A stretch of DNA of 64,000 nt from Acidobacteriota bacterium (GCA_012719355.1 JAAYAM010000161.1:41048-105047), one strand, 5' to 3'. Shown: positions 6,572-25,955, counted from the first letter of the stretch. Numbers and translations: made by a program. The notes: a model not told the origin generated them from the letters alone.

Positions 6572-6867
6572 TTCGATCTCCTGACTTCTTCCTGTTGGGT
6601 TGCAACGGCACCTCACATCCGCTGGTCCTGCAGACGCTGGAGGACCAGGGTTTGGCATGCTTTCCTCTTGTGCTCGGCACTGTGGTTCCAGAAGGTCCAA
6701 CCACACGCCCGGAATTCAAATGCTTTATGCGGCGGCACTCAGCCGGTAATTGGGTTGTTGCTGAAAGTCAGACGTATCGGGCATACGTTATCATAAAGAA
6801 TGACAGCGCGAATCAAAATATGACAACATGACCGTCCGTCCCCGCGCATGCAGAGCGCGGCCCTGCT

Positions 6868-7329
6868 GTGGCTCGGGATGCATTTGAAATCGGTTGCGTA
6901 GGAAATGTCTTTTCTGATAACTCTCTCGGTATGACTGATAGTTTGGGATCTGCTGAAAAGAACAGAAAGTCGCTGACTCTCCGGGCCTGCAACATAGGCG
7001 TACGGACGGCGCACATCATTGCAACCTGCATACTTGTCGGCGGGCACTATTTCGCTGTTGCGCCTGACCTTCTGCTTCCGTGGCTTTACGCCACCGTCGC
7101 TTCCGGTGCAATCCTGATACTGATCGAGGCTTATCCTGGCTGGCGATGGCATCGAGAGGCGCGTGGCTGCATGGTTCTGACCAAGATCGGCGTAATGTGT
7201 CTGGTCATCTGGCTATGGGAATATCGTGTGATCTGGCTGCTGACCGTAATCGTCATCGGCTCGATCGGTTCTCACATGCCCCGGCAATACAGATATTTTC
7301 AGGTAATACCCTGGCGCAGGATCGATTGA
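6868..7329 (+). CDS. hypothetical membrane protein
   Basis: ORF with about 4 predicted TM helices; no homology recognised; start uncertain (internal MTDSLGS possible). Confidence 0.35.
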   Translation: MARDAFEIGCVGNVFSDNSLGMTDSLGSAEKNRKSLTLRACNIGVRTAHIIATCILVGGHYFAVAPDLLLPWLYATVASGAILILIEAYPGWRWHREARGCMVLTKIGVMCLVIWLWEYRVIWLLTVIVIGSIGSHMPRQYRYFQVIPWRRID

Positions 7330-7352: not shown

Positions 7353-7778
7353 TCAGTGGTCTTCGGCGACGGCGGTCAGAACCAGTTTTCCATGTTTCAC
7401 GCCCTTGGTCGCGATCAACCCGTCGGCAACCTTTCTGATCTCTTTTGAACTGCCCCGCAACAGCAGCACCTCCAGGCAGAGATGAGGGGTCAGGTGGATA
7501 TGGATTGTAGAAATGATTGCATTCAGATGGTGGTGCTGATATTCGGTAAGCTTCTCCTCCAATTCGCGCTGATGATGATTGTAGACGAGTGTCAGCGTGC
7601 CGACTCCCTCGGCGTCTTCCCGCTTCAGGGTGTCTTCCATCAGAAGACTCCGAACCATATCGCGGATCGCCTCTGAACGGTTCTCATACCCCTTGCCGGC
7701 GCACAAAGAATCAAATTCAGAAAGCAGGCTTTCTTCCATCGAGACGCCAAAACGGACCAACCGATTACTCCTGGTCAT
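7353..7778 (-). CDS. nikR: nickel-responsive transcriptional regulator NikR
   Basis: N-terminal ribbon-helix-helix (EESLLSEFDSLCAGKGYENRSEAIRDMVRSLL) plus C-terminal Ni-binding domain with the HHH...H..C motif (EYQHHHLNAIISTIHIHLTPHLCLEV); ATG with GGGAGGGG RBS. Confidence 0.85.
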   Translation of the reverse strand: MTRSNRLVRFGVSMEESLLSEFDSLCAGKGYENRSEAIRDMVRSLLMEDTLKREDAEGVGTLTLVYNHHQRELEEKLTEYQHHHLNAIISTIHIHLTPHLCLEVLLLRGSSKEIRKVADGLIATKGVKHGKLVLTAVAEDH

Positions 7779-7878
7779 CGGCAACTTCCCCTCCCTCTAA
7801 GACGAAATCACTTTACGCCGAGCCGCTCTCAACCGAGAGTTGGAACGTTAGTAAAGGATTGTAAAAGCAATCTCGAGA

Positions 7879-10245
7879 CTACACCTTGCCCAGGGCCTTG
7901 AGAACCCTGTCCGGCGTGGCCGGCGGATCAACCCACCTGCCGATTGCATTCTGAATTGCGCAGATTACGAGATGTGTGTTCGCCAGGGAATGGCTGATGC
8001 CGTTGGAACCGTACGCGGCATTGCCTGCGCGCGTCTCCAGCAACTCCATGTCAACGGGCGAGACATCCAGAATTGTGGGTTTTTTGTATTCGATCATGTT
8101 GGTGTTCAATCTTACGCCGGTCGCCTTGTCGAAGATAAAGTCTTCCTTCAACTGGCATCCTTCGCTGAAATACATGACCTGATGAATCTGCCCTTCCAAA
8201 GAGGTGCGACGCATGATCTTACCTGTATCGGCGACCACTCCGAAGCGAAGTATCTCCACCTCACCGGTCTCGGTGTCGACGGCTACCTCGCACATTGCCA
8301 CGTTCATGGTATCCAGCTTCTTGCCCCGGTGGCTCCACAGGGCATCCGGAGGTTTGCCGGAGTAGGTTGCAAACAGATTGGCACGCACAGCCTGCGCGAG
8401 CGGGACACCGATGCCGGGATCCGATTTGACGATGACTCTGCCATCGCGCAGGTCGAGCTCTTCAGGTTTCCGGCCCTTCAAAGGGCTGGGGGTGGGCTTC
8501 TTTCCAAAGGAGCCGAATCCCCCGGCAGCGGGAGGATTATTCGCTTCCTCGACAGCTGCCTCCAGAATCTGCTTCTTCAGCTTATTCGCACATTCCTTCA
8601 CAGCCCAGGATGACGCGGTGGTTCCGTCGCTCCCGCCTCCCCAGGGCCTGTAGATCTCATGATGATCAAGGCTGGTCCGTATGTCCTCGTACTTCAAACC
8701 CAGTTCTTCGGCTACCACCATTGCGTTCGCTTCCATGATGTAGTTGCCGATCACCGGCCCTCGGGAGGGAAGGTACACCACGCCGTTCCTGAGTTCGAGC
8801 TTTGGACTGAACACCGTGCCGGAATGACGCGGGCACTGCTGGTAACGAAAGCTCGCACCGTGCAGCCTGCCGTCGGGAAGCCTCTTTTCGCCCGCTCCGT
8901 GCCACTTCCAGTTCATCATCTTCTTTGCAGCCTGGACACATGCTTCATAGCTGGGCACAGGATTGGGGTCGGTCTGGGATTCCGGGCCGTGGAGATTCAG
9001 CGTTGCAATCTCTATCGGATCCTTGCCCAGTTTTTCTGCAATCGCATGGATCGCCACGGTCAGGGAATCCCAGTTCATCGGATTATGCTGGCCGCTGAGC
9101 CACATCTTCCCGCGATTGCTGTCGACGACATCCATGTTCTGTTTGACGTTCTGACATCTGGTGGTGAAGTAGGGGCCATAGGTCTGGTCCATGGTATTGC
9201 CGAACATGGTGCTTCCACGCACACCGCCGTCGGCGATTGAAAAATCGTCGATTGCCGTAATCAGGCCGTTGCTCTTAAACCCGATTCTCAGATGAACGAA
9301 GCGCTGGTTCAGCGCGAAGTCGTACATCCCATAGCGCTCGCTGACGCACCGAACCGGCCGACCGGTTCTCCTGGCCAGGAGCGGCGTGATCAGCTGCTGT
9401 TTCCGGATGCCCCAATCGCAATACCTGCCGCCGACAAACATGCACTCTTGGAAGACCTTCTCCGGAGCGACACCATACATTCGTCCCACCTGATCATGTC
9501 CCCAGGGAGTGCCTTCAATTCTCAAGTTCTTGCCTTCGCCATGATAGGGACTGTCGAACCACCAGGCGACGCCGCCTACCGGGTTGGGAATATGGCTGCA
9601 GAAGGCCGCCGTGTTTACATCGACTTCCAGCACATGGTCAGCTTCTCTGAAACCTGCTTCGATGTCTCCCTCGCTGACGTTGGAATAGGAAACGTTCCCC
9701 TTCCTGGGGGGATTATTCCCTCCTCCCATGCCAAATCCGCCAGGGCTTCCTTTAGAGGCAGGAACTTCCGGTCGAATTACCGGAACGTCGGGCTTTCTCC
9801 CCTCGAGAAGATCCACAACGTGCGGCAGCACCTCCCATTTCACCTTGAGCCGCTTCAAGGCCTCGTCGCAGATGTCCTCGCTTTCGGCCACAACGATAAC
9901 CGCCACTTCGGTCCCTTCCTGGTCAGCGATGTTGTCAAGGAATGGGAGCGGAGGTCCCATAAAGCCTCCGCCGGCGCTCAGGTTCCTGATATCCTCGTCT
10001 TCCCAGGTGAGGATATCGACGACTCCGGGAATTGCCCTGGCTGCAGCGGTATCGACGCTGAGAGCCTTCGCGTTTGCGTACGGGCTCCTGAGGAATTTTG
10101 CATGGAGCATATCCGGGGCTGTGTAGTCGACGCCGTATTTTGCAATCCCTGATGCGATTGCGTGTGACAGCCTGCCGGGAAGATTGGCCTTCCCTACGAC
10201 TTTGAAATTTTCTCTCTGTCCGTTCACTCCAACGAGGTCAGCCAT
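7879..10245 (-). CDS. xanthine dehydrogenase/aldehyde oxidase family molybdopterin-binding large subunit
   Basis: 788 aa; a/b hammerhead N-terminus and Mo-cofactor binding domains typical of the CoxL/XdhB family; Gly-rich insertions. Confidence 0.85.
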   Translation of the reverse strand: MADLVGVNGQRENFKVVGKANLPGRLSHAIASGIAKYGVDYTAPDMLHAKFLRSPYANAKALSVDTAAARAIPGVVDILTWEDEDIRNLSAGGGFMGPPLPFLDNIADQEGTEVAVIVVAESEDICDEALKRLKVKWEVLPHVVDLLEGRKPDVPVIRPEVPASKGSPGGFGMGGGNNPPRKGNVSYSNVSEGDIEAGFREADHVLEVDVNTAAFCSHIPNPVGGVAWWFDSPYHGEGKNLRIEGTPWGHDQVGRMYGVAPEKVFQECMFVGGRYCDWGIRKQQLITPLLARRTGRPVRCVSERYGMYDFALNQRFVHLRIGFKSNGLITAIDDFSIADGGVRGSTMFGNTMDQTYGPYFTTRCQNVKQNMDVVDSNRGKMWLSGQHNPMNWDSLTVAIHAIAEKLGKDPIEIATLNLHGPESQTDPNPVPSYEACVQAAKKMMNWKWHGAGEKRLPDGRLHGASFRYQQCPRHSGTVFSPKLELRNGVVYLPSRGPVIGNYIMEANAMVVAEELGLKYEDIRTSLDHHEIYRPWGGGSDGTTASSWAVKECANKLKKQILEAAVEEANNPPAAGGFGSFGKKPTPSPLKGRKPEELDLRDGRVIVKSDPGIGVPLAQAVRANLFATYSGKPPDALWSHRGKKLDTMNVAMCEVAVDTETGEVEILRFGVVADTGKIMRRTSLEGQIHQVMYFSEGCQLKEDFIFDKATGVRLNTNMIEYKKPTILDVSPVDMELLETRAGNAAYGSNGISHSLANTHLVICAIQNAIGRWVDPPATPDRVLKALGKV

Positions 10246-10420
10246 TTTGCTCCGCCCCCTTTCAGTTTGTCAGCCGCTTTCCATGAGACGTTCTGACACT
10301 ATGATGCACATCTTCACTTCCTGCGCAACAGGGAACTGAGCGTCGGAGGCGGGGCGAATATGGTACGAGTTCAGTGGTCGAACCGGAGGCGTAATGATGC
10401 GAACGCATTCTTGCTCAGGG

Positions 10421-12805
10421 TCATGGCTCCTGCAACTCCTTGATACGGCTTTCGAGTACCTCTCGTTCGGAAACGGGAAGCCGCCCGCTGCTCAGAATGC
10501 CTTGATACAACGCCCGGGCCTCATCGGTCTTTCCTTGTTTGAGATAGGTCTCACCGAGCAGGAGTATCGCATCAAGATGGAAGCTCTTCTCTCGCGCCAG
10601 CCGCTGTAATATAGCTATCGACTCAGCACTGTCACCGCTCTGAAGAAGGTAGAACGCCAGCGAGTAGCGGTACTGCGAATTGTCCGGCTGAATTGTGCAG
10701 GCACGTCGCAGGTATTCGATCGCTGAAGCCATCTTACCCGACTGTGCATTCACCACACCCAGATTGTAGGCCGCTACGGCGGATCCCGGGTCAAGCTCTG
10801 CGGCTTTCTGCAAATGCGCGGCGGCTTCTTTCAAATTACCCATTTCTCCAAGCAGCAACCCGAGATTCAGGTTCGCCTCAACACTGTCAGGCTGTAATTC
10901 ACTCGCTCTGCGCAGGCTGTGAACGGCTTTGTCGTTCATGCCGAGTCCGTTGTAGGCGAACGAGATATTGACATGAGGCTGAAGCGCCCGCGGTTGCAGC
11001 CGTATAGCGGTCTCATAAAACGATACGGCCTGCCGGTAGTCACCCTGCGAGAGATAGAAGCTTCCCAAGTTGTAATAGGAGGACCAGTGGTCCGGACGAG
11101 CCTGGAGGAGCGACTTGAATTCCTCTGCCGCCTTGTCAAAGGCCCCGGCAATGCCGGCTTCCAGCACGTTCCGTGGAACTGACGCCATTGCGGAAGCGGC
11201 GCGCACCCGCACAACCCGCAATGGGTCGCTGAGCGCAGCACTCAGCACAATCAGGGCGGCACCGTCAATGCGGTCTCCCAGGGCTTCAGCGGCACTGGCG
11301 CGAACCAGGGGCGAAGGATCTTTCATTGCGCGTATCAGGACAGGCCATTTCCGGTCGTCATTGCAGGGCCGGAGCAAGCGTATCAGCGATGCGCTGAAAA
11401 CCGCGTCACGCCCTTCACTCTCCACGTACTCGAGCATGGCCGGCAGCTTCTTCCAGTCACGTCTTCGTGCAGCATCGATGAGAGAGGCGCGAAGAAGAAC
11501 CGGCGCCTGGTAGTCCCTCTTCCGCCATTTGCGGACCCACCCATCCGACCACCTGGCGTCCCTGTCGGTATGACAGATGTTGCAGGCATTCGGCGACTTG
11601 TAGGCTGCGGTTACCGCAGGAGTCGGCGGCAGCATCGAATGATCGCTGCGGCGCATCCGGGCGAATTCGGTCATCGGCATATGGCAGGAAATACACTGGC
11701 TCCCAGGACTCCCTTCGGGATGGTGCGAATGAGCTGAGGCATTTCCCACTTTGTCGTTATGACACGGAAGGCAGGCGTCGTTCTTCCGGGCGTCAGCAAA
11801 TCGAAACCTTCCGCTTGACGTGTGGCAATGCATGCAATCCATCTGTCCCGATTTCGCACAGGGACTCATCAACCACTGTGTGTATGTGTAGTTTTCACCA
11901 AGGTCGCGACCGTCGGGGTGATAATCCGGCAGATCAAGAACACCCAGATCGAAATGGTCAAAGAAATCATCTCCGGGTTTGTAGGAAGCAGTCAGAGGAG
12001 TTGCCTTGGCATGACATGTAGCGCAGGCGTCGCCCCCAATTTTCGTGCTGTACTTGGGCGGGCCGATTATGTCAATCTTCAAATCTTCGGGAGTGTTCCC
12101 CTTCCCGGCCTTGCGGCAGACACGGACGTGTTCAGTCGCAGATCCATGACAGGTTTCGCAGTTGATGCCCGGTTCAAGCCAGACGGAACTGTAGGTATCT
12201 GTTGCCTGATCGTAGTTTCTCGTGAACTGGCTGACGTGGCACCCGTAACATGATGTGTTGAACGTATACTCCGGATCTTTCCACCCTACCGGCTCTTCCT
12301 CTATGTCCTGAAAATGCCGGATTCCGCTGGCCGCCGTATCAAACCAGGATTTCTTCCGGACATCATACGCCAGGGGAAGAACCTGCAGACGCCCGCGATC
12401 CATTGACGTGAGGAAATAATAGACGTTCTTTCCTCCGAGGGCGTGCGCCAGAGGATATTCTTTCTTTCCTCGAGGGCCGCTCTCGCTGATCCAGGCGCGT
12501 GTGCCATCGAATTCCACCCGGCACGTGGAATCTCCAACAACCAGATCTTCGGTCTGCGGCGTAAGCCTGGTGCGAAACAATTCAGCCGTGAAGGGCTGCA
12601 TTGCCAGCCCATGATACGAAGTGGCCCAAAGCTGGTAAAACTCTTCGTGGCATTCGCGGCAGGACTGCGTCCCTGAATAGCCGTCAGAGGCGGCCGAATC
12701 ACCAGCCGTACCCCGAATCACCGACTGCAAGCTTTGATAGAAGATCGCCGCCGCGCAAAGCAGGACGACCGCCAAAAGTATGATGATCCATCTTGTCTTC
12801 TTCAT
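10421..12805 (-). CDS. membrane-anchored octaheme cytochrome c fused to HEAT and TPR repeats
   Basis: N-terminal TM helix; eight CxxCH motifs (CRECH, CYGCH, CETCH, CATCH, CMHCH, CLPCH, CISCH, CNICH); C-terminal HEAT-like (PLVRASAAEALG) and multiple TPR repeats; ATG with GAGG RBS. Confidence 0.85.
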   Translation of the reverse strand: MKKTRWIIILLAVVLLCAAAIFYQSLQSVIRGTAGDSAASDGYSGTQSCRECHEEFYQLWATSYHGLAMQPFTAELFRTRLTPQTEDLVVGDSTCRVEFDGTRAWISESGPRGKKEYPLAHALGGKNVYYFLTSMDRGRLQVLPLAYDVRKKSWFDTAASGIRHFQDIEEEPVGWKDPEYTFNTSCYGCHVSQFTRNYDQATDTYSSVWLEPGINCETCHGSATEHVRVCRKAGKGNTPEDLKIDIIGPPKYSTKIGGDACATCHAKATPLTASYKPGDDFFDHFDLGVLDLPDYHPDGRDLGENYTYTQWLMSPCAKSGQMDCMHCHTSSGRFRFADARKNDACLPCHNDKVGNASAHSHHPEGSPGSQCISCHMPMTEFARMRRSDHSMLPPTPAVTAAYKSPNACNICHTDRDARWSDGWVRKWRKRDYQAPVLLRASLIDAARRRDWKKLPAMLEYVESEGRDAVFSASLIRLLRPCNDDRKWPVLIRAMKDPSPLVRASAAEALGDRIDGAALIVLSAALSDPLRVVRVRAASAMASVPRNVLEAGIAGAFDKAAEEFKSLLQARPDHWSSYYNLGSFYLSQGDYRQAVSFYETAIRLQPRALQPHVNISFAYNGLGMNDKAVHSLRRASELQPDSVEANLNLGLLLGEMGNLKEAAAHLQKAAELDPGSAVAAYNLGVVNAQSGKMASAIEYLRRACTIQPDNSQYRYSLAFYLLQSGDSAESIAILQRLAREKSFHLDAILLLGETYLKQGKTDEARALYQGILSSGRLPVSEREVLESRIKELQEP

Positions 12806-12925
12806 TTCAGCCTCGTTCAAAGCATGCAGTTCGTTTTCCAGCCGGAGGTGAATATAACCGATTTAGCTTGCGGACCAAAGAAGTAAGTGTCATAAAAGGA
12901 AGACACCAATGAAAAGGAGGAGTGA

Positions 12926-14548
12926 ATGCAGTCAATGAGAAGAACGATTCTCACGGCAGCCGCGGTTTTCCTCTTTGTGAGTTTTGCCGCAGCAGGAGAA
13001 GAAGATAACAGCGGTGCATCCCGTGGGCCCAATATCCTGCTGGTTATTGCCGACGATATCGGGATTGATGCGACTACCAACATCTATCCGGGAATGATTG
13101 ACGATCTTGTGACGAAATACGGACCTTCCGGGCACAACCACCCCGGCTATCGCGAAATTGCGGGTAAGCCGGCTTCCACGCCTGCCATGGATAAGCTCGC
13201 CAGATTGGGGATGAGATTCACAAATGTCTGGGCGCATCCATTCTGCTCGCCGACGCGGGCAGCCATCTTGACCGGGCTCTATGCAGCCGAAACGAAGGTA
13301 GCCACCTATGCGGACGCACTCTCCCCGAAACACACAAGCTTCGTCCGGTTGTTGAAGGACAAAGGTTACAGTACAGCAGCATTCGGCAAATGGCACATGG
13401 CCGGGTTGCCGGGCAAACCTGTCGATTACCCCGGTATGAAGCCGAAACAGGCCGGATTCGATCTCTTCAAAGGAAATCTCCACGCCGCAATCAACTCATA
13501 CTGGGACTACGACTATCAGGTGCAGGACGCAAACACTCCGGAAGACAAATGGCGCAGCGAGCCGATGCCTAAGAAATCACTTCCCGGTATTGCTGCGACA
13601 CATTACGCTCCGGTAGTCAAAGTCGCCGACACCATAGAATGGATTAAAGCCAGGCAGGTGGAAAACCCGAATAAGCCATGGTTTGCATGGCTGGCATTCA
13701 ACCTGTCGCACACCACGATCAGGCAGAAGCCGAGTGCGATGGCCGTGCCGGATGCCGACACACTCGACGCCGCGAGTCACAAGGAGATGAAGGAATGCGG
13801 AGGCACGTTCGGATCGAATAACCCGGGCTCGTGCAGCGGCGAGGCACTCAACCGCGCCATGACCAATTCACTCGACACCGTTTTCGGTAAGCTGATGGAG
13901 GTGATCGACGGCATTCCCAACACCTACGTCATTGTTGTCAGCGACAACGGCACTCCCATGTACGGCAGGCCCAATCTCAACTTCATCGATAACATGTACA
14001 TCACCAGGAAGGACCGCGGAAAGGGGACTGCCTATCAAAGCGGCGCCCTGGTGCCGATGATCATTCGAGGGCCGCGGATAGCAGCCAACAGCGTAAGCAC
14101 TGAATACGCCCACGCAGCTGACCTGTTCTCCACCATTCTGGAACTGGCGGGACTCGCTGCACCGAAGCAGGTGGCCAATAGTGAAGGAACGAAAACGGTT
14201 CCCCTTTCCACAGTGTCGCTGGCACCGATTCTTTTTGACAAAGCGAAAAGCGTACGCGACCCGAACAGCGGCTACATATTCACGGAAACCAAGAACCTGA
14301 TGACGGGCGGCACTCGTATGGTCGGAGCCCGGAATGCAACCTACAAGGTCATCTGTACCGACAGCGCGGCCAACTGTCAGTTCTTTGATCTGATCAACGA
14401 TCCGCTGGAAGAGTATCCGCTCGCCAAACCAGACAGCTGCGATGGATATGCTGACGGAAAGTGGACGCCTTCAGATCCGCATTGGCACTATTGCCGGTTA
14501 ACGGATGCCGTTGCGAAGGAGTCTTTCCTCGCGACTGATACAAAATAG
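12926..14548 (+). CDS. sulfatase (arylsulfatase family)
   Basis: Signal peptide; sulfatase signature CSPTRAAILTG (formylglycine motif C-x-P-x-R); AAGGAGG RBS. Confidence 0.9.
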   Translation: MQSMRRTILTAAAVFLFVSFAAAGEEDNSGASRGPNILLVIADDIGIDATTNIYPGMIDDLVTKYGPSGHNHPGYREIAGKPASTPAMDKLARLGMRFTNVWAHPFCSPTRAAILTGLYAAETKVATYADALSPKHTSFVRLLKDKGYSTAAFGKWHMAGLPGKPVDYPGMKPKQAGFDLFKGNLHAAINSYWDYDYQVQDANTPEDKWRSEPMPKKSLPGIAATHYAPVVKVADTIEWIKARQVENPNKPWFAWLAFNLSHTTIRQKPSAMAVPDADTLDAASHKEMKECGGTFGSNNPGSCSGEALNRAMTNSLDTVFGKLMEVIDGIPNTYVIVVSDNGTPMYGRPNLNFIDNMYITRKDRGKGTAYQSGALVPMIIRGPRIAANSVSTEYAHAADLFSTILELAGLAAPKQVANSEGTKTVPLSTVSLAPILFDKAKSVRDPNSGYIFTETKNLMTGGTRMVGARNATYKVICTDSAANCQFFDLINDPLEEYPLAKPDSCDGYADGKWTPSDPHWHYCRLTDAVAKESFLATDTK

Positions 14549-18387: not shown

Positions 18388-18592
18388 AGTCTCGCCCGGA
18401 CGCCATGCGGCCTGCCAGGCAGCAGTCGATTTCATTGCATAACAGGATTTTAGCTACAGTCGCCCACGCTCTGGTTTATCGTAACAACGGCACGGAAGCT
18501 TTAGTCAATTCCACCGCTAACGCCCTGTAGTGAAGAAGGTTATCAGATTTTCCAGTCGTGTATGTTATTTTAGTCACGGCTACCGCGCTTCA

Positions 18593-18611
18593 TACCCCCT
18601 GCAAGGGGGTA
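18593..18611 (+). promoter_or_regulatory. GC-rich hairpin TACCCCCT-gca-AGGGGGTA in the 5' region of the radical SAM gene
   Basis: 8-bp perfect stem with 3-nt loop, about 40 nt upstream of the ATG at 18651. Confidence 0.3.
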
Positions 18612-18650
18612 CGAAGTGGAACGCAATCGTATTACGCATGGAGAAGAGCA

Positions 18651-19523
18651 ATGAAGTACGAAGGGATGATCTACCGCCCGCCAAGCGAAGCAGACAGCCT
18701 TATACTGCAGGTGGCAGTAGGGTGTTCATACAACGGCTGCACCTTCTGTCATTCCTTCCAGGGCAAGACCTTTCGCATCAAGTCTTTTGAGGAAATTAAA
18801 GAGGATATCGATGAGGCAGCCACGTACGGAACCATCCGGCGGGTTTTCTTGGCTGACGGAGATGCGCTGATCATTCCCCAGACTGAACTGGTCCGGATCC
18901 TCGCCTATTTGAAGGAAAAAATCAGAGGACTCGAGCGCGTCGGTATTTATGCCAACGCCGTTGACGTTCTTAAGAAGAGCACCGAAGAGCTTTTCGAACT
19001 CAGGCGACTCGGCTTGGGCATCATTTATCTAGGCCTCGAATCCGGGAACGCAGAGGTTCTCAAGCGGATCAGGAAGAACGCTACAGTGGACCAGATGATA
19101 CGGGCGGGGAAGCGGGTGAAAGAGGCCGGGATACTGCTCTCGATCACGGTGTTGCTCGGCGTCGGCGGCGTGGAGCTGAGCCATGCGCATGCCGAAGATA
19201 CAGGCAGAGTACTTTCCGGAATGGATCCGGAGTTCGTCGGTGCCCTGTCGCTCATGATCGTCCCGGGAACCCCGATACACGAAGAAATGCAGTCGGGAAA
19301 GCTCGTACTTCCGACGCCGTTCGAACTGATCCGCGAGCTGGGAACCATGATTGCGAACTGCCGCTTTACCAACTGCTTCTTCGCGTCAAACCACGCATCG
19401 AATTATTTGCCACTGCGGATCAGGATGCCTGCGGAGAAAGAGCAGGCGCTACAGCTGATTCACCAGGTTCTGCAGCGAAAAGACCCTGAATTGCTTCGCC
19501 CCGAGTATATGCGGGCACTGTAG
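18651..19523 (+). CDS. radical SAM domain protein (non-canonical Cx4Cx2C cluster motif)
   Basis: VGCSYNGCTFC motif near the N-terminus, glycine-rich SAM-binding segments (GIIYLGLESGN), GGAGAAGAG RBS; no SPASM domain. Confidence 0.8.
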   Translation: MKYEGMIYRPPSEADSLILQVAVGCSYNGCTFCHSFQGKTFRIKSFEEIKEDIDEAATYGTIRRVFLADGDALIIPQTELVRILAYLKEKIRGLERVGIYANAVDVLKKSTEELFELRRLGLGIIYLGLESGNAEVLKRIRKNATVDQMIRAGKRVKEAGILLSITVLLGVGGVELSHAHAEDTGRVLSGMDPEFVGALSLMIVPGTPIHEEMQSGKLVLPTPFELIRELGTMIANCRFTNCFFASNHASNYLPLRIRMPAEKEQALQLIHQVLQRKDPELLRPEYMRAL

Positions 19524-19702
19524 GACAGCCGGACGGCGATGGTAGTCTGTAGCCGTTTTCAGAATGGCTCCAGATGCAGGCAAACAACAATTTAGCTCCT
19601 CCCTCCGACTTCAATTCACCATTCGGTAAGGCTGCCCTCGATGGTATACTCCTGAAGGAACCGCGGTTCCGTTTCCGGCATAAGGAAGGTAGAGACAGTC
19701 TC

Positions 19703-20119
19703 ATGAACAATGTTTCTGCAAAAGCGAAATTCGTTCTGGGCGGCGTCGTTATCGTGGCGGCGCTTGGATGGCTGGGGTTCGTCGGCTTCGAGGAAAGCAA
19801 AGCATACTATATCACGGTCGATGAGTACGCCGCGTTGACGGAGCCGAGGGAAGGGCGGGTCTTCAAGCTTGCCGGCGACGTGGTTGCCGGCTCGATCGAC
19901 AGATCCAAACCTCAGATGGAATTCATAATTGCCAGCAACAACAAAGAAATCCTGGTGCGCTATGTCGGGAAGGACATAATCCCCGATACATTCAGGGACG
20001 GATCGACAGCGCTTGTGGAAGGAAGCGCCGCACCGGATGGAACCTTTCATGCTCGCCATATCGAAGCAAAGTGCGCCTCGAAATACGAAGCGGAATACGA
20101 CAAGAGAACCACTTCCTAA
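19703..20119 (+). CDS. ccmE: cytochrome c-type biogenesis heme chaperone CcmE, CxxxY variant
   Basis: N-terminal TM anchor and OB-fold CcmE signature (LVEGSAAPDGTFHARHIEAKCASKYE); Cys replaces the canonical heme-binding His of the HxxxY motif. Confidence 0.85.
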   Translation: MNNVSAKAKFVLGGVVIVAALGWLGFVGFEESKAYYITVDEYAALTEPREGRVFKLAGDVVAGSIDRSKPQMEFIIASNNKEILVRYVGKDIIPDTFRDGSTALVEGSAAPDGTFHARHIEAKCASKYEAEYDKRTTS

Positions 20120-20179
20120 CATCAGAATCCAGAATTCCGAATTCGGATACTTCTGAGTTCGAAGCCTTCAGGTAAGTAC

Positions 20180-22207
20180 ATGGCCAGTTTCGGCAACTTT
20201 TGTATTCTTTTTGCCTTATGCCTTTCGGGATATGCCCTTCTCGCCGCTTTGATCGGAGTCTCGCAGCGCCGGCAGACGATTGTGCGCAGTGCGGAACACG
20301 CCGTCTATGCCGCGACGGGAGCGATTACACTCGCTTTGTTCTCACTCCTGTACCTTCTGCTTACGGATGATTTTTCGGTATCCCATGTAGCGAATTCCAG
20401 CAGTCGGGAACTCCCGGTGTTTTTCAAGATCGCCGCAATCTGGGGAGCTCATGACGGATCGATGCTCCTTTGGGTCTTCTTCACCTCCCTCTTCTGCGCG
20501 CTGGTAGTCTGGCTGAACAGATTCCGGCACAGGGATATGATGCCTTACGTCATTGCGGTCCTGATGATCGACCTCGGTTTCTTCCTCTGCCTCAACGTCT
20601 TTATCTCAAATCCGTTCACGCAGCTGGCACAAGTATTTCCGGACGGCAGCTATCAGTCCTTCCTTCCCACCGACGGACGCGGGCTCAATCCGCTGCTGCA
20701 GCACTGGGCCATGGTGATTCACCCTCCCGTGCTCTACCTCGGATTCATCGGCTTCCTTGTCCCATTCGCTTTCGCTATCGCGGCCCTCATCACCAGGCAG
20801 CTTGGCGACACCTGGATCAGGACTACACGGCGGTGGACTCTTTTGACTTGGCTTTTCCTCGGCATCGGACTGATTCTGGGAGGCAAATGGGCGTATGTCG
20901 TGCTCGGCTGGGGCGGCTATTGGGCCTGGGACCCGGTGGAGAATTCGTCCCTTATGCCCTGGCTCGTCAGTACCGCGTTTCTCCACTCCGTGATTGTCCA
21001 GGAGAGAAGAGGAATGCTGAAGATCTGGAATATGCTCCTGGTCATCATCACCTATCTTCTCGGGATCTTCGGCACCTTCATCACGCGCAGCGGAATCGTC
21101 AGCTCCGTCCACGCGTTCGCCGCTTCAAATCTTGGACAGTTCTTCATTATCTATATGTCCGCGGTTCTCGGCGTGAGCCTCATCCTCGTCGCCAGTCGCC
21201 TCCAGTATCTGAAAAGCGAGCGCCGGCTCGATTCCATTCTCTCCAGGGAAAGCGCATTTCTATTCAACAACCTGATTTTGGTGGTCGCATGTTTTGCCAT
21301 CCTCTGGGGAACCATGTTTCCGGTTCTTTCGGAATGGATCAGGGATACCCAGATCACGGTCGGGCCTCCATTCTTCAACAACATCAATGTGCCGATCGGC
21401 CTGCTGCTCCTTCTTCTGACCGGGGTGGGGCCGTTGTTTGCGTGGCGCAAGACTTCCCTGGAGAGCCTGAGAAAGGCATTCCTGCTGCCGTCGATTTTCG
21501 CCGTTGCAACGTGTGCGGCGGTTCTCGCGGCGGGCGTGCGCAACTTCAGCTTCGTTGTTTGTATGACCCTGTGTACCTTCGTGCTGGTGACAATTGTTGA
21601 AGAGTTCTACAAGGGAACCAGAATCCGGATGTCTTCACGAGGAGAGAATCCTCTCCTTGCAGCCGTCAATCTGACGCTCAAAAACAGGAGACGCTACGGC
21701 GGCTATATTGTCCACCTGTCGATAATCTTCATGTTCGTGGGATTCGCCGGGAATGTATTCAATCAGGAAGCTTCCGGGCGGCTGGCAAAGGGCGCCGAGT
21801 TGACCATCAAGGATTATTCCTTAAAGATGGTCGATTACCGCGAAGGCGCCGGATCCAACTACCAGTATCGCCGGGCAGTTCTGGACGTGTATAAAGACGG
21901 CAAGCGCATCCGAACGCTCGAGCCGGAACAGAGGATGTTTACAGCGGGACAGCAGCAGACTACCACGGAGGTCGCGCTTCACAGCACACCGAAAGAAGAC
22001 CTTTATCTCGTCCTTGCGGGCGTCTCGCGAGATGGTTCAGTCGACATAAAGGCGTTCGTGAATCCGCTGGTATTCTGGATCTGGTTCGGCGCGGCAGTAA
22101 TGTTCTTTGGGGCTCTGATAGCTCTCATCCCTGAGAAGGGGAGGATCGGAAGCACGCAGCCAGAACTCGCCGGTCGGCAGACGGCAGGCGTCAATCCGGG
22201 AGTATAG
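20180..22207 (+). CDS. ccmF: cytochrome c-type biogenesis protein CcmF (heme lyase)
   Basis: 675-aa polytopic protein with WWD domain (GGYWAWDPVENSS) and conserved His residues. Confidence 0.9.
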   Translation: MASFGNFCILFALCLSGYALLAALIGVSQRRQTIVRSAEHAVYAATGAITLALFSLLYLLLTDDFSVSHVANSSSRELPVFFKIAAIWGAHDGSMLLWVFFTSLFCALVVWLNRFRHRDMMPYVIAVLMIDLGFFLCLNVFISNPFTQLAQVFPDGSYQSFLPTDGRGLNPLLQHWAMVIHPPVLYLGFIGFLVPFAFAIAALITRQLGDTWIRTTRRWTLLTWLFLGIGLILGGKWAYVVLGWGGYWAWDPVENSSLMPWLVSTAFLHSVIVQERRGMLKIWNMLLVIITYLLGIFGTFITRSGIVSSVHAFAASNLGQFFIIYMSAVLGVSLILVASRLQYLKSERRLDSILSRESAFLFNNLILVVACFAILWGTMFPVLSEWIRDTQITVGPPFFNNINVPIGLLLLLLTGVGPLFAWRKTSLESLRKAFLLPSIFAVATCAAVLAAGVRNFSFVVCMTLCTFVLVTIVEEFYKGTRIRMSSRGENPLLAAVNLTLKNRRRYGGYIVHLSIIFMFVGFAGNVFNQEASGRLAKGAELTIKDYSLKMVDYREGAGSNYQYRRAVLDVYKDGKRIRTLEPEQRMFTAGQQQTTTEVALHSTPKEDLYLVLAGVSRDGSVDIKAFVNPLVFWIWFGAAVMFFGALIALIPEKGRIGSTQPELAGRQTAGVNPGV

Positions 22208-22209
22208 CT

Positions 22210-22653
22210 ATGGCGGTTTGGGTGGCATGCACAGTTGTCGTGCTGGTAAGCGGCATATACGTTCTCAGGCCGCTCTTCAGGCAGAGCGCAGGGAATTTTG
22301 ATGTCGACCTTCTGTCTGAAACGGAGCTTGACCGGCTGCTCGACCGGAAATCGGTCGTCTACCGGAATCTCAAGGACCTGCAGCTGGAATTCAGGATGGG
22401 CCGGCTCTCCGAGGACGATTTCCGGCAGCTCGATGAGGGCTATAAGAACGAAGCCGCCTTGATATTGCAGAGGCTTGACCAGCTCGACGCTTCGGAACAC
22501 CTCGATGAAATGATCGAGAAGGATATCAGGGCGAAGAAAGCGAAACTGTTCGGTACAGCCACCCGGACTGCTGATTCATCACGTTGCCCGTCGTGCGGCG
22601 CACCGAGAATCGAGGGCAAGAAATTCTGCGGCGATTGCGGCCAGCGTCTGTAG
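22210..22653 (+). CDS. hypothetical membrane-anchored protein with C-terminal zinc ribbon (zinc_ribbon_2-like)
   Basis: N-terminal TM helix, coiled-coil, C-terminal CPSCGAPRIEGKKFCGDCG; starts 2 nt after the ccmF stop. Confidence 0.6.
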   Translation: MAVWVACTVVVLVSGIYVLRPLFRQSAGNFDVDLLSETELDRLLDRKSVVYRNLKDLQLEFRMGRLSEDDFRQLDEGYKNEAALILQRLDQLDASEHLDEMIEKDIRAKKAKLFGTATRTADSSRCPSCGAPRIEGKKFCGDCGQRL

Positions 22654-22658
22654 ACAAA

Positions 22659-23849
22659 ATGAGAAAATTATCGATTCCAGCATTGTTGTTTTTCCTGGCT
22701 ATTGTGCCGGCAGCCCGCGCACAACAGCAGTGGATCGCCGAAGGAAAACTGATCAACGGAACTGATCCGTCAATCATCGCGCGCGGTGTCGAAGTGGAGA
22801 TACTCAGCCTTGATGTCGGGATGAGCATTATCAAGGCAGGTTCCACGGATTCATCAGGGAAATTCCGCTTTGAAGGGCTCCCGCCAAACCGGAGGATGAT
22901 GGTTCGTGCAAACTACAAGGATGCCAACTATCACGCGCAGCTTTCATTCACCGCAGGAAAGGCCAACACGGATGTCACGGTGTACGAACCCACGACGTCG
23001 ATGGCAGGGATTGAGGTTCAGGAGGCATTTCTGGCTTTCCAGCAGTCAGGCGAAGATTTGAAGTTGCTTGAGACGGTCACCTTCAACAACAAGACGAACC
23101 CTCCAATGACCTTTGTCGCTCCCGAAGGTACTTTCAGGACTTCCAAATCTCCAGGGCTGCTCGAACCTCCTCAGATGAGGGTCACGGCCCCCGGCTCATC
23201 GATGCCGGTGGTCCAGTCCGTGCTCGAGAGCGCGGACGGCACGAACTATTACACTCTTTATCCTCTCCGGCCCGGGGAGACCACGTTCGAAGTCCAGCAG
23301 CTGCTTCCGTATAAGGATCGAAGCTACAGGCTGATCAAGAAGTTCTACCAGAATGTCGGCTCGCTGAATATCGGGGTGATACCGCAGGACATGGTGTTGT
23401 CCGGGGAAGGACTATCGAAGATCCAGTCGGACGGCGAGAAGAACTTCTCCATTTACCGCACCCCTTCGATCAAGGCGGGAACCGAAATAGCGTGGGAGTT
23501 TTCCGGGGGAACACCTGTGCCGGACGCCGCAGAAGAGCCCACGGGAGGATCGGAAATACAGGCAATCCCAAATGACGTGGGAGAGAGTGCAATTATGATA
23601 GGCTCACTCCTCCTGATGGGTTTTGTCCTGGTTCTCTGGTACGCGTTTAACCGCTCGCCGGAGGCGGCGGTCGGTCAGGCGGACGCGCGCACCCGCACGC
23701 TGAAGGAACAGAGGGAGCAGCTGCTGAAGTCGCTTGCCGAGCTGGACCATCGCAAGGACACCGAGTCGATTGGGCAGGATGAATATCTGAAGCAGCGGGA
23801 AGAAGGCAAGCGCCGGCTGCGGCGCATTTCACTTCTCCTGAAAGAATGA
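22659..23849 (+). CDS. hypothetical secreted protein with carboxypeptidase-regulatory-like beta-sandwich domain, C-terminal TM and coiled-coil
   Basis: Signal peptide, SGKFRFEGLPPNRRMMV motif typical of CarboxypepD_reg/Cna-B folds, one TM near the C-terminus, K/R/E-rich tail, no Cys; stop overlaps the ccmA start (ATGA). Confidence 0.6.
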   Translation: MRKLSIPALLFFLAIVPAARAQQQWIAEGKLINGTDPSIIARGVEVEILSLDVGMSIIKAGSTDSSGKFRFEGLPPNRRMMVRANYKDANYHAQLSFTAGKANTDVTVYEPTTSMAGIEVQEAFLAFQQSGEDLKLLETVTFNNKTNPPMTFVAPEGTFRTSKSPGLLEPPQMRVTAPGSSMPVVQSVLESADGTNYYTLYPLRPGETTFEVQQLLPYKDRSYRLIKKFYQNVGSLNIGVIPQDMVLSGEGLSKIQSDGEKNFSIYRTPSIKAGTEIAWEFSGGTPVPDAAEEPTGGSEIQAIPNDVGESAIMIGSLLLMGFVLVLWYAFNRSPEAAVGQADARTRTLKEQREQLLKSLAELDHRKDTESIGQDEYLKQREEGKRRLRRISLLLKE

Positions 23850-24598
23850 TTCGGCGACCTATGATTGAAGTTCGGAAACTGGCCAAACATTTCGGCAGGT
23901 TCCCGGTTCTGCGCAGCCTGGATCTGACGATTCGAAAAGGAGAGTTTGTCGCGCTCTTCGGAAGAAACGGGGCGGGGAAGACCACCTTTTTGCGAATTCT
24001 GGCCGGGCTTTCCCGCGCGTCCTCGGGAACCATGAGCATACAGCTCCCGGATGAGAAGAGATTCCGCTTTGCGCGAGGTGCGATCGGATATCTCTCACAC
24101 AACACGTCGCTGTATACGGATTTGACTGCGCTGGAGAATCTCGGTTTCTATTCCAGACTTATGGATGCACCTTCGGATGAAGCGTCGCTGATCCGGAAGA
24201 TCGAGCTGGTCGGACTGGCCGGACGTGAAAGAGAGCCGGTACGCAATTACTCGCGAGGAATGCAGCAGCGCCTCGCAATCGCAAGGGCCTTCCTGCACGA
24301 TCCGGAGATTCTGCTTCTGGACGAGCCTTTCACCGGACTGGACCAGGGGGGCTCCGAATTCCTCAAATGGTTTCTCGCGCAGGCGCACTCGGAAGGGAAG
24401 ACCTGCATCGTCGCGATCCACGATGCGTCTCTCGGCTATGAGATGGCAGACCGGCTTGTCGTTATCGAGAGAGGAGTGGTGGCTCTCGATGTGCCGAAAA
24501 CATCCCTGACTCTGAAGGAATTCGAGGAGAGGTACCTTGCCGTCACTCAGACGCGCATGCGGAGCAGCGTCGGTCCTAACGCAGGAAATCTCCTATGA
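23846..24598 (+). CDS. ccmA: heme exporter ATP-binding protein CcmA
   Basis: ABC ATPase with Walker A (GRNGAGKTT), signature and Walker B; operon position. Confidence 0.85.
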   Translation: MIRRPMIEVRKLAKHFGRFPVLRSLDLTIRKGEFVALFGRNGAGKTTFLRILAGLSRASSGTMSIQLPDEKRFRFARGAIGYLSHNTSLYTDLTALENLGFYSRLMDAPSDEASLIRKIELVGLAGREREPVRNYSRGMQQRLAIARAFLHDPEILLLDEPFTGLDQGGSEFLKWFLAQAHSEGKTCIVAIHDASLGYEMADRLVVIERGVVALDVPKTSLTLKEFEERYLAVTQTRMRSSVGPNAGNLL

Positions 24599-25263
24599 AG
24601 AGGATATGGGCCGTATTCCGGAAGGATCTGCTCGTTGAGTTGCGGACGAAGGACACGCTGAATTCGATGCTCTTTTTTGGAGTCGTCGTTCTCGTGGTCT
24701 TCAATTTCGCCATGGAATCCCTGCGCGATTCCGTTCGCACCGCAGTTCCCGGAGTTCTGTGGGTCGCGTTTGCGTTTTCCGGGACACTCGGCCTTAACCG
24801 GATGTTCGCCTCGGAAAAGGAGAATGGCTGCCTGCAGGGCCTGTTGATGATTCCTGTGGACCGCGGCATCATCTACTTTGGAAAGATGCTGGCGGCGACG
24901 GTATTCATGCTCATCGCCGAAGTGATCATATTCGTCTGCAGCCTTGTGTTCTTCAACCTGACGGTCTGGAATGAAATCCCTTATCTGGCCTTAGTTTTCC
25001 TGATCGGCACCCTGGGGTTCACTGCCGTGGGGACGCTGCTGTCCGCCATCGCGGTAAATACGAGGTTGAGGGAGGTTCTGCTGCCGCTTCTCCTTTTCCC
25101 GGTAATTCTGCCTGTCCTCGTCAACGCGGTGGAGGCTACCGGGATCATACTGAACGGCCCGGACTACGGAGCATTGAGACTGCCGCTCACGGTAATGACG
25201 GTTTTTACGGTGGTCTTCGGCACGGTTTCGTATCTCCTGTTTGAGCACGTCCTGGAGGATTAG
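24595..25263 (+). CDS. ccmB: heme exporter protein CcmB
   Basis: 6-TM CcmB-like protein, ATGA overlap with ccmA. Confidence 0.85.
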   Translation: MKRIWAVFRKDLLVELRTKDTLNSMLFFGVVVLVVFNFAMESLRDSVRTAVPGVLWVAFAFSGTLGLNRMFASEKENGCLQGLLMIPVDRGIIYFGKMLAATVFMLIAEVIIFVCSLVFFNLTVWNEIPYLALVFLIGTLGFTAVGTLLSAIAVNTRLREVLLPLLLFPVILPVLVNAVEATGIILNGPDYGALRLPLTVMTVFTVVFGTVSYLLFEHVLED

Positions 25264-25265
25264 GA

Positions 25266-25955
25266 ATGACGCACAAATACAGATCCCGCCTCGATACGGC
25301 ACTTGAGATCATCCTGGTCCCCGGAATGGGGCTCGCCCTGTACATGGCTTTTATCGTGGCTCCCCGGGAAGCTTCGATGGGAGACCTGCAGCGCATCTTC
25401 TACTTCCACGTGGCGGCGGCGATCGCGGGAATGACCGCGTTTGCGGTGAATTTCGCCGCTTCCCTGATGTATGTGATCCGGAAGAACCGCTGGTGGGATC
25501 ACGCCGCACTGGCGGCCGCTGAAGCCGGGGTTGTGTTCATGGTCATGGTGCTGATCACGGGGCCGATCTGGGCAAAACCGGCATGGTTCATCTGGTGGAC
25601 CTGGTCGCCGCGCCTGACTTCCTCTCTCGTACTGTGTCTGCTCTATGTCGCCTATCTCCTTATCAGGAACTATATCGGAGATCCGGACCGAAAAGCGCTG
25701 GTCTCCGCGGTATTCGGCATCATCGCTTTCGTGGATGCTCCTCTGGTATGGTTTTCGATACGGTGGTGGCGCGACCATCATCCAGGCCCGATGCTCGAGA
25801 CCGGAGGACTGGACCCGTCGATGCGTCCGGCGCTGTACATATGTATGGCGGTATTCCAGGTTCTCATGTTCTATCTGCTTCGGCGGCGTTTCCGTCTCGA
25901 GGGAATGCGCGACCAGGTGGAGTCGCTCTACCGCCAGGCAGACCTGGCGTCCTGA
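25266..25955 (+). CDS. ccmC: heme exporter protein CcmC
   Basis: WWD domain (WFIWWTWSPRLTSSL) and conserved His residues. Confidence 0.9.
   Translation: MTHKYRSRLDTALEIILVPGMGLALYMAFIVAPREASMGDLQRIFYFHVAAAIAGMTAFAVNFAASLMYVIRKNRWWDHAALAAAEAGVVFMVMVLITGPIWAKPAWFIWWTWSPRLTSSLVLCLLYVAYLLIRNYIGDPDRKALVSAVFGIIAFVDAPLVWFSIRWWRDHHPGPMLETGGLDPSMRPALYICMAVFQVLMFYLLRRRFRLEGMRDQVESLYRQADLAS

Follow-up and report, generated by a model that had tools for sequence, protein, structure and literature searches.

The DNA analysed here is a 64,000-nucleotide stretch from an Acidobacteriota bacterium (GCA_012719355.1, JAAYAM010000161.1:41048-105047), called the window below, and the gene under study lies on its minus strand at 10421..12805. 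The gene encodes a protein in which an octaheme cytochrome c domain is followed by HEAT repeats and tetratricopeptide repeats (TPRs). The original prediction, made from the sequence alone, described a single membrane-anchored polypeptide with these parts, regarded the fusion as rare and proposed that its repeats dock an adjacent Mo-hydroxylase or an outer-membrane complex. The union of eight CxxCH hemes, HEAT repeats and TPRs in one polypeptide has been confirmed as one intact open reading frame (ORF) of 794 aa. The new aspect is that the protein appears to represent a large, unstudied OcwA/MccA-like octaheme branch with a predicted His/Cys-ligated heme, tied through its genomic context to formylglycine sulfatases.

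The octaheme cytochrome-HEAT-TPR protein

The features of the cytochrome gene and of its sulfatase neighbour are listed below, with positions counted from the first nucleotide of the window. Models made with AlphaFold2 (AF2) are rated by the predicted local distance difference test (pLDDT).

10421..12805 (-): coding sequence of the octaheme cytochrome c-HEAT-TPR protein, 794 aa plus stop (ORF list, translation, colinear homologs of ~796 aa)
12734..12805 (-): N-terminal hydrophobic segment, residues 1-24, MKKTRWIIILLAVVLLCAAAIFYQ (sequence; AF2 helix at residues 2-34)
11531..12673 (-): octaheme cytochrome c domain, residues 45-425, OcwA/OmhA/MccA/c554-type fold
12647..12661 (-): heme motif 1, CRECH (49-53), invariant in homologs
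12338..12544 (-): beta-sheet insertion between hemes 1 and 2, residues 88-156 (strands, pLDDT 80-97, in both AF2 models)
12236..12250 (-): heme motif 2, CYGCH (186-190), invariant in homologs
12146..12160 (-): heme motif 3, CETCH (216-220), invariant in homologs
12011..12025 (-): heme motif 4, CATCH (261-265), invariant in homologs
11873..11917 (-): conserved loop PDGRDLGENYTYTQW, residues 297-311, aligned by HMMER to the OcwA distal His-His segment above heme 2
11858..11860 (-): Cys316, a non-motif cysteine and predicted axial heme ligand (alignment column pattern)
11822..11836 (-): heme motif 5, CMHCH (324-328), invariant in homologs
11759..11773 (-): heme motif 6, CLPCH (345-349), invariant in homologs
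11681..11695 (-): heme motif 7, CISCH followed by MP (371-377), invariant in homologs, with M376 invariant in all clades
11570..11584 (-): heme motif 8, CNICH (408-412), invariant in homologs
11171..11506 (-): HEAT-like repeats, residues 434-545 (Pfam HEAT_2; alphaRep matches in the PDB; pLDDT ~90)
10430..11158 (-): seven TPRs, residues 550-792 (Pfam TPR families, AF2 helices, Foldseek matches to CTPR and OGT)
12806..12925: divergent intergenic region of 120 bp between the cytochrome and sulfatase genes (from the coordinates)
12926..14548 (+): exported Cys-type S1 sulfatase, 540 aa (Pfam Sulfatase E 6e-37; PDB matches to S1 sulfatases; synteny)

Translation of the window gave a single, uninterrupted frame of 794 codons plus stop, which begins with ATG at 12805 and has GAGG 5 nt upstream of the ATG. 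An alternative TTG start is possible at 12820 and would lengthen the protein by five residues. The objection that the C-terminal repeats could form a separate gene behind a frameshift was checked and set aside, because a homolog search returned more than 100 proteins of ~796 aa each that are colinear with the query over 94-100%. The N-terminus, MKKTRWIIILLAVVLLCAAAIF, has a positively charged tip and then a hydrophobic stretch, which could be a signal anchor or a cleavable Sec signal (cleavage between AAA and I). The hydrophobic segment of the predicted membrane anchor was therefore found, and an anchor and a cleaved signal are both possible readings of it. Taken as a whole, the description as a Sec-exported c-type cytochrome of the periplasm, either secreted or held by its N-terminus, is well supported. 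Attachment of c-type heme needs export of the protein, and the predicted periplasmic location is supported by a periplasmic-type octaheme domain that runs into HEAT and TPR solenoids.

The protein has exactly eight CxxCH motifs, the first starting at residue 49 and the last ending at residue 412. None of them varies across 34 aligned homologs (52-94% identity) or across 113 sequences drawn from several phyla, which puts the pattern far beyond chance. Pfam matches in the N-terminal half of the protein are Cytochrome_C554, Cytochrome_C7 and Cytochrom_c3_2, and no curated NCBIfam model reaches its cutoff. In a full-length AF2 model based on the 34 close homologs, the heme domain reached a pLDDT of only 35-50 and Foldseek searches with it gave TPR proteins only; the domain was remodelled alone with the alignment of 113 diverse sequences. 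Likewise, a full-length profile search of the PDB was dominated by TPR and alphaRep matches, and the heme domain was searched separately.

The C-terminal half has been assigned by three methods. HEAT_2 was matched at residues 471-541 (E 2.7e-8; 34.4 bits against a cutoff of 27.7), and many TPR families were matched at residues 553-775 with E values down to 2e-30, among them TPR_8 with 102.8 bits against a cutoff of 25.7. The AF2 model has seven helices at 434-545, equal to ~3.5 HEAT-like pairs, and fourteen helices at 550-792, equal to seven TPRs, with pLDDT >90. Foldseek matched the solenoid to consensus TPR (CTPR) and OGT TPR superhelices at E 1e-11 to 1e-9. These results agree with the HEAT-like repeats and the at least six TPRs of the original prediction, and put their numbers at ~3.5 and seven, respectively. 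Four TPR asparagines (579, 613, 647 and 681) are invariant in the 34-homolog alignment at a spacing of 34 residues, one per TPR; Asn at this spacing is also seen in TPR proteins that bind extended peptides. It is reasonable to regard the solenoid as a partner-docking element.

Family, structural relatives and candidate heme ligands

The first 440 residues were searched against 1.84 billion representative proteins (50%-identity clusters). The search returned 5,170 clusters at E<=1e-3 and 1,040 clusters at E<=1e-30. Of the top 150 representatives, 66 reach a length of 680 aa or more and the others are metagenomic fragments. Exactly eight CxxCH motifs were found in 55 of these 66 full-length proteins, and a C-terminus that aligns to the HEAT/TPR part of the window protein in 64. 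A profile built from twelve diverse heme domains retrieved 2,704 proteins at E<=1e-20 from Acidobacteriota, Desulfobacterota, Planctomycetota, Verrucomicrobiota, Nitrospirota and others, with heme-domain identities of 52-65%. The octaheme-HEAT-TPR fusion is the standard form of this very large and widespread family, because full-length members nearly all carry the solenoid and the 'cytochrome-only' members precede HEAT/TPR ORFs. The supposed rarity of the fusion has thus been abandoned. The original prediction had named a common and functionally characterised architecture as what would speak against it; the architecture proved to be common, and no paper on the family or on its pairing with sulfatases was found in the literature searched.

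The 'cytochrome-only' members were considered as a separate architecture and rejected, as HEAT/TPR ORFs directly follow them and they are split genes or long-read frameshifts. Two long-read metagenome-assembled genomes (L171:7001-9256 and L172:7001-9410) contain a cytochrome ORF of 434 or 516 aa, immediately behind it HEAT/TPR repeats in ORFs of their own, and after these between one and three sulfatase genes. They represent either real split genes or homopolymer frameshift errors, and 'cytochrome-only' database entries need to be treated with care. Family members are recorded under the names 'tetratricopeptide repeat protein', 'HEAT repeat domain-containing protein' and 'multiheme c-type cytochrome', and occasionally as 'nitrite reductase c552'. 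Public records P0304 and P0381, for example, are named 'ammonia-forming cytochrome c nitrite reductase subunit c552'. Such names are probably mistaken, because the family is without the CxxCK motif, and they could inflate nrfA counts in metagenome surveys.

The profile search of the PDB with the heme domain placed OcwA first (6I5B, E 2.7e-25), in three segments that cover almost the whole domain. OmhA (6QVM, E 6.5e-16) and 6R2Q (E 9.6e-13) followed; chain A of 6R2Q is presumably MtrA, although the match table labels the entry otherwise. Cytochrome c554 (1BVB) was matched at E 1e-9, several NrfA structures at E 1e-8 to 1e-5, and MccA (4RKM) weakly, at E 0.017. In the published description of OcwA, a c554-like block of four hemes leads into an NrfA-like block of five; there is an extra beta-sheet domain at residues 75-156 that only MccA shares, and hemes 2 and 5 have open sites (PMC6703420). 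The assignment of the heme domain to the OcwA/OmhA/MccA/c554 branch (clade 3, Soares et al. 2022) of the NrfA-related multiheme cytochromes is well supported. The protein is an exported multi-CxxCH protein, its backbone fold is like that of the solved members, and a beta-sheet domain follows heme 1. In the profile alignment, hemes 1-4 correspond to OcwA hemes 1-4 and hemes 6-8 to OcwA hemes 7-9. Heme 5 is aligned with OcwA heme 6 in the better-scoring segment, but with OcwA heme 5 in the tail of another segment. The alignments suggest that the NrfA-type active-site heme (OcwA heme 5) is most probably missing from the protein, as it is in MccA.

Candidate heme ligands were sought in an alignment of 414 family members, comprising 126 at >=65%, 220 at 40-65% and 68 at <40% identity to the window protein. 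H65, H226, H359, H362, H389 and M376 are conserved in all clades. In the loop PDGRDLGENYTYTQW, residues D298, R300, E304, N305 and Y306 are invariant in 126/126 members of the first class and near-invariant in the 220 relatives at 40-65%. Cys316, in the context WLMSPC, is Cys in 126/126 and in 220/220 members of these two classes (346/346 in total). In the <40% clade the same column holds Met in 50/68 and Cys in 16/68, and the aligned residue of OcwA is His. Column 316 varies among the three residues that classically serve as axial heme ligands, Cys, Met and His, and the simplest reading is that it supplies a distal ligand and that the clade of the window protein would have a His/Cys-ligated heme. 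His/Cys-ligated hemes are characteristic of the sulfur-converting proteins TsdA, SoxA and DsrJ.

Seven universal candidate distal ligands (H65, H226, H359, H362, H389, C316 or Met, and M376) for eight hemes are suggestive of a five-coordinate heme 2. In c554, OcwA and MccA, the heme at the equivalent position is five-coordinate (PMC6703420). H284 and H164 could each serve as the eighth distal ligand.

Sulfatase genes beside the cytochrome gene

The window contains one sulfatase and one multiheme ORF, and the two are divergent neighbours, 120 bp apart. The sulfatase starts with a hydrophobic N-terminal leader, MQSMRRTILTAAAVFLFVSFAAAG, which is read as a signal peptide. Its formylglycine motif is CSPTR (aa 107-111, nt 13244-13258), and the metal-binding DD is present. 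For comparison, 102 loci with a family member were collected from genome and metagenome contigs, all ORFs were called, and sulfatases were detected with a hidden Markov model built from eight neighbour sulfatases. Many contigs in the 40-65% class are short. Counts for the assessable loci, by identity to the window protein, are as follows.

At least 65% identity: 13 assessable loci; sulfatase within 400 bp at 10, within 5 kb at 11
40-65% identity: 54 assessable loci; sulfatase within 400 bp at 16, within 5 kb at 23
Below 40% identity: 20 assessable loci; sulfatase within 400 bp at 0, within 5 kb at 2

Adjacency differs between members above and below 40% identity (Fisher's exact p = 5e-4, uncorrected for phylogeny). 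In the clade of >=40% identity, the starts of 29 sulfatase genes lie no more than 500 bp from the cytochrome gene, equal to 4.8 per 10 kb of flank, compared with 0.35-0.6 per 10 kb farther off (0.5-10 kb). Strong and repeated juxtaposition of cytochrome and sulfatase genes is restricted to the Cys316-carrying clade; in the <40% clade there are 4 Cys-type loci, too few to relate column 316 itself to sulfatase adjacency. Pairs are found divergent as well as upstream and downstream on the same strand, so that the juxtaposition is independent of orientation, and many same-strand pairs have gaps of 33-98 bp. Look-ups with precomputed Pfam annotation also found an adjacent sulfatase at P0074, P0001, P0114, P0281, P0290 and P0296, and one 4 kb away at P0380.

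The adjacent sulfatases belong to at least ten subfamilies with mutual identities of 22-35%. Their motifs are nearly all of the Cys type, including CSPTR, CTAGR, CTPSR, CAPSR, CVPAR, CCPTR and CGPSR; in two partners no C-x-P/A-x-R motif was found, and one of these is an N-terminally truncated ORF. All complete partner sulfatases begin with hydrophobic leaders that are read as signal peptides. In one subfamily (L012:5912-7522, L092, L093, L105 and L119) the canonical C-x-P-x-R is replaced by C-T-A-G-R.

When the neighbours were clustered all against all, sulfatases formed by far the largest cluster (38/102 loci). They are followed by a fusion of a chorismatase-FkbO/Hyg5-like domain with RidA (11 loci), a periplasmic HAD hydrolase (6) and sigma-54 activators (6). 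No chorismatase-like or HAD neighbour occurs in the window, and no FGE or anSME/radical-SAM maturase cluster recurs in the 102 neighbourhoods. The chorismatase fusion is a protein of 370-430 aa with an FkbO/Hyg5-like N-domain and a RidA (Ribonuc_L-PSP) part, encoded beside the cytochrome gene or between it and the sulfatase gene (for example L005:6793-7953, L008:6750-7892, L109:5449-6720, L134:7371-8513, L099:5918-7228 and L081:6992-8101). Its presence may be a hint that a small aromatic molecule takes part in this process. At another locus (L090:2269-8851) a family member lies right after a Bat-like aerotolerance cluster of two VWA proteins, a TPR protein and a 493-aa protein, with no sulfatase nearby.

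On the 3' side of the cytochrome gene in the window, 175 bp off and on the same strand, lies the gene for a 788-aa Mo-binding subunit of the xanthine dehydrogenase family, followed by nikR, a small ORF and an aldehyde dehydrogenase gene. The Mo-binding large subunit (7879-10245, -) has no adjacent FeS or FAD subunit genes. The NikR-type regulator is at 7353-7784 (-), and the small ORF, at 6739-7152 (-), encodes 137 aa without a Pfam or NCBIfam match. On the 5' side, the sulfatase gene is followed by genes for an MFS transporter, a PAS-GAF-GGDEF protein and a radical-SAM protein, and then by ccm genes. The radical-SAM gene (321 aa) is directly upstream of ccmE, ccmF, a 421-aa ORF, ccmA, ccmB and ccmC, together at 18558-25955. 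Its matches were all weak and were to B12-binding radical-SAM methyltransferases. The closest relatives (L082-L084) have the same gene order, radical SAM-ccmE-ccmF, and a radical-SAM gene at the head of a ccm operon is unusual. Elsewhere in the window are a tungsten-type aldehyde:ferredoxin oxidoreductase (AFOR; 26181-28367, -), a GWxTD-domain protein (34195-35838, +) that adjoins glycosyltransferase and sugar-nucleotide genes, and a PEGA+TPR protein (50287-52080, -), and the remainder is housekeeping. No dsr, FGE or anSME gene was seen in the 64 kb. A promoter and terminator scan of 10000-13100 gave counts near the shuffled expectation and was uninformative on operon structure.

Candidate roles and comparison with known systems

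S1 sulfatases are inactive until a Cys or Ser in their active site is oxidised to formylglycine, and known maturase genes (atsB, FGE) often adjoin sulfatase genes. The only formylglycine systems known to us are the O2/Cu-dependent FGE and the cytoplasmic radical-SAM anSME. A further bacterial sulfatase-maturing activity has long been inferred. The best explanation overall, to which we assign a probability of about 0.35, is that the protein is a sulfatase-coupled periplasmic octaheme cytochrome that would dock its partner through the solenoid, with a sulfatase-activating oxidase as the favoured form. The broader proposition that the C316 clade (>=40% identity) works with the adjacent exported Cys-type formylglycine sulfatases is, on the gene context, fairly probable. 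An oxygen-independent periplasmic sulfatase-activating oxidase is the most likely specific mechanism, but is by itself rather unlikely. It is favoured because, to our knowledge, formation of formylglycine from the active-site Cys, a two-electron oxidation, is the sole redox step in an S1 sulfatase, and because the motif alone is common to the diverse partners. That the clade represents a third route of sulfatase activation, independent of both O2 and radical SAM, or in a variant a redox processing of the sulfo-enzyme intermediate, is a doubtful proposal.

In the proposed mechanism, the HEAT/TPR solenoid would dock the sulfatase polypeptide or its unfolded N-terminal segment, with the unfolded CxPxR segment of the Sec-exported sulfatase held in the TPR/HEAT groove. 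C316 and its heme, whether His/Cys-ligated or open, would oxidise the substrate Cys to formylglycine, and the remaining hemes would form a wire that carries the two electrons to the respiratory chain. In the variant, the cytochrome would process a sulfo-enzyme intermediate reductively or oxidatively and so tie organosulfate cleavage to respiration.

Several points weigh against a sulfatase-activating cytochrome. The functional evidence consists of gene context and alignments, and the ligand role of Cys316 and the mapping of the hemes on OcwA likewise come from alignments and not from coordinates. The sulfatase association is incomplete, with no sulfatase within 7-8 kb at P0118, P0278, P0361 and L009; the loci are phylogenetically non-independent, and some of the genomes are sulfatase-rich. 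A cytoplasmic anSME or an FGE could be encoded elsewhere in the same genomes. We know of no precedent for a heme-based conversion of Cys to formylglycine without O2 or H2O2. The leader of the window sulfatase (MQSMRRTIL) contains RR; if the enzyme uses the Tat pathway, it would fold and mature in the cytoplasm before export. Finally, neither an FGE nor a radical-SAM domain is among the Pfam and NCBIfam matches listed for the protein, and membership of these known maturase families was rejected on this ground.

A possible rival role is that of a generic periplasmic component of electron transfer or extracellular electron transfer (EET), in which the TPR/HEAT part scaffolds respiratory complexes and the sulfatase adjacency reflects co-regulation or a shared ecology in anoxic, organosulfate-rich peat or sediment. 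Of the solved structures, those nearest to the protein, OcwA and OmhA, belong to terminal reductases of EET, a ccm heme-maturation operon lies 7 kb from the cytochrome gene, and members of <40% identity keep the same architecture without the sulfatase link. Multiheme cytochrome genes have been reported to be very numerous, and to be expressed, in peat Acidobacteriota (bioRxiv 10.64898/2026.05.27.727921), which fits an EET role. However, no porin, outer-membrane cytochrome, quinol dehydrogenase of the NrfD, CymA or NapC type or other redox partner recurs beside the gene, the tight and often operon-like spacing to many sulfatase subfamilies is hard to explain by ecology alone, and the clade-specific invariant Cys316 is left unexplained.

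The protein might also be a sulfur-oxyanion enzyme, an MccA/OTR/TsdA-like octaheme that converts sulfite, thiosulfate, tetrathionate or a sulfo-intermediate alongside the sulfatase, in the manner of SoxAX with SoxB; this appears unlikely. SoxAX is a His/Cys heme protein and SoxB is its sulfate-releasing partner. The sulfate released by S1 sulfatases, however, is not reducible without ATP activation, no significant sequence match of the protein to TsdA or SoxA was obtained, and the conserved peptide-binding solenoid is not accounted for. The hallmarks of MccA are absent, as there is no CX15CH or CX17CH motif and catalytic residues were not identified, and OcwA itself did not reduce sulfite (PMC6703420).

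It is improbable that there is no functional link at all and that the pairs result from inherited synteny and chance in sulfatase-rich genomes. Sulfatase density is already high 2-10 kb away (~0.5 per 10 kb), the 12 closest loci share one orthologous sulfatase, as fits vertical inheritance, and 3/10 looked-up loci have no sulfatase. Against these stand the 8- to 14-fold enrichment at the immediately adjacent position and the recurrence of adjacency with at least 10 non-orthologous sulfatase subfamilies in varied orientation and order, which therefore requires repeated, independent juxtaposition.

A cytochrome-maturation chaperone of the CcmI/CycH/NrfG-like TPR type, or a His/Cys ligand-switch redox or gas sensor that signals through the solenoid, is very unlikely. 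TPR_CcmH_CycH (PF23914) was matched with 56.7 bits, above its 42-bit cutoff, and ccm genes are nearby; the match, however, is one of ~25 overlapping generic TPR matches, the gene is outside the ccm operon, and synteny with ccm genes was not seen at other loci. A sensor role could draw on the sigma-54 activators or histidine kinases of 6 related loci and on the PAS-GAF-GGDEF gene close by in the window, but eight hemes are excessive for a sensor and there is no output domain.

Least probable by far is the docking of the Mo-hydroxylase or of an outer-membrane complex to feed electrons: the Mo-hydroxylase gene is on the same strand, with no terminator-like site found in the 175-bp gap, and in the near-identical relative P0001 an unannotated gene cut by the contig end lies directly downstream of the cytochrome, but the idea is effectively refuted by localisation and synteny. 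The N-terminus of the Mo-hydroxylase, MADLVGVNGQRENF, has no signal peptide, and the enzyme is therefore cytoplasmic and out of reach of the periplasmic hemes and solenoid. In the synteny check that the original prediction had called for, a homolog was found near the cytochrome gene in 1/16 genome loci, there 4 kb away, and was absent beside it in the other 15 as well as at P0074, P0114 and P0118. The outer-membrane partner has fared no better, as no porin or outer-membrane cytochrome recurs among the neighbours of the family.

With rarity and the Mo-enzyme partner gone as grounds for interest, the tie to sulfatases remains. If true, a family tied to many sulfatase subfamilies is a testable candidate for a new maturation or redox-coupling step. 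At a minimum, a genomic context is provided for thousands of proteins whose present label is only 'tetratricopeptide repeat protein' or, wrongly, nitrite reductase. Should the link prove to be regulatory only, the architecture is still ordinary and the idea of Mo-enzyme docking is still dropped. Cleavage of organosulfates has been suggested as a source of sulfate in anoxic, sulfate-poor peat dominated by Acidobacteriota (bioRxiv 10.64898/2026.05.27.727921).

Among known systems, the closest in sequence is OcwA, the nonaheme cell-surface terminal reductase of Thermincola potens (PDB 6I5B), with an identity of ~22%. The window protein has eight hemes in place of nine and lacks either heme 5 or heme 6 of OcwA; the distal His-His above heme 2 of OcwA is aligned to the invariant GENY loop, and the His of its WLMTGH segment to the invariant Cys316 (WLMSPC). 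OcwA resides in a Gram-positive cell wall, whereas the window protein is placed in a Gram-negative periplasm and carries a 360-aa HEAT+TPR solenoid where OcwA has a short C-terminal three-helix bundle. The protein was not identified as OcwA proper, given its eight hemes and a heme 2 cap aligned to GENY instead of HH. MccA, the octaheme sulfite reductase of Wolinella succinogenes (PDB 4RKM), shares the beta-sheet insertion with OcwA and the window protein. All eight motifs of the window protein are canonical CxxCH, unlike the CX15CH or CX17CH motif of MccA heme 8, and neither the Cu-binding Cys pair nor the catalytic Lys/Arg/Tyr of MccA is identifiable, with C316 as the one extra invariant Cys. 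MccA is also without TPR or HEAT repeats and its gene context differs (mcc operon). Identity with the MccA sulfite reductase was rejected on the missing heme 8 motif and two-Cys Cu site. Cytochrome c554 (four hemes) aligns with hemes 2-3 and NrfA (five hemes) with hemes 7-8; as the C-terminal hemes alone align and CxxCK is absent, the protein was rejected as an NrfA nitrite reductase.

Other likenesses lie in chemistry and gene arrangement. TsdA, SoxAX and DsrJ have the His/Cys ligation that is predicted for the window protein, with two or three hemes in contrast to eight, and SoxA and TsdA have no detectable homology to it (SoxA 1h31, E 0.54). The pair of SoxAX and SoxB, a periplasmic c-type heme protein alongside a sulfate-releasing hydrolase, can be likened to the cytochrome and its sulfatase. 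FGE (Cu/O2) and anSME (radical SAM) have no sequence or fold similarity to the protein, whose chemistry would be that of periplasmic heme, but as in atsB-atsA or FGE-sulfatase pairs its gene adjoins those of many Cys-type sulfatase subfamilies. MauG, with two c-type hemes, brings about the oxidative maturation of another enzyme of the periplasm; without detectable homology to the window protein, it shares the idea of a heme enzyme as maturase and is a precedent in logic for an octaheme cytochrome that would activate its sulfatase neighbour.

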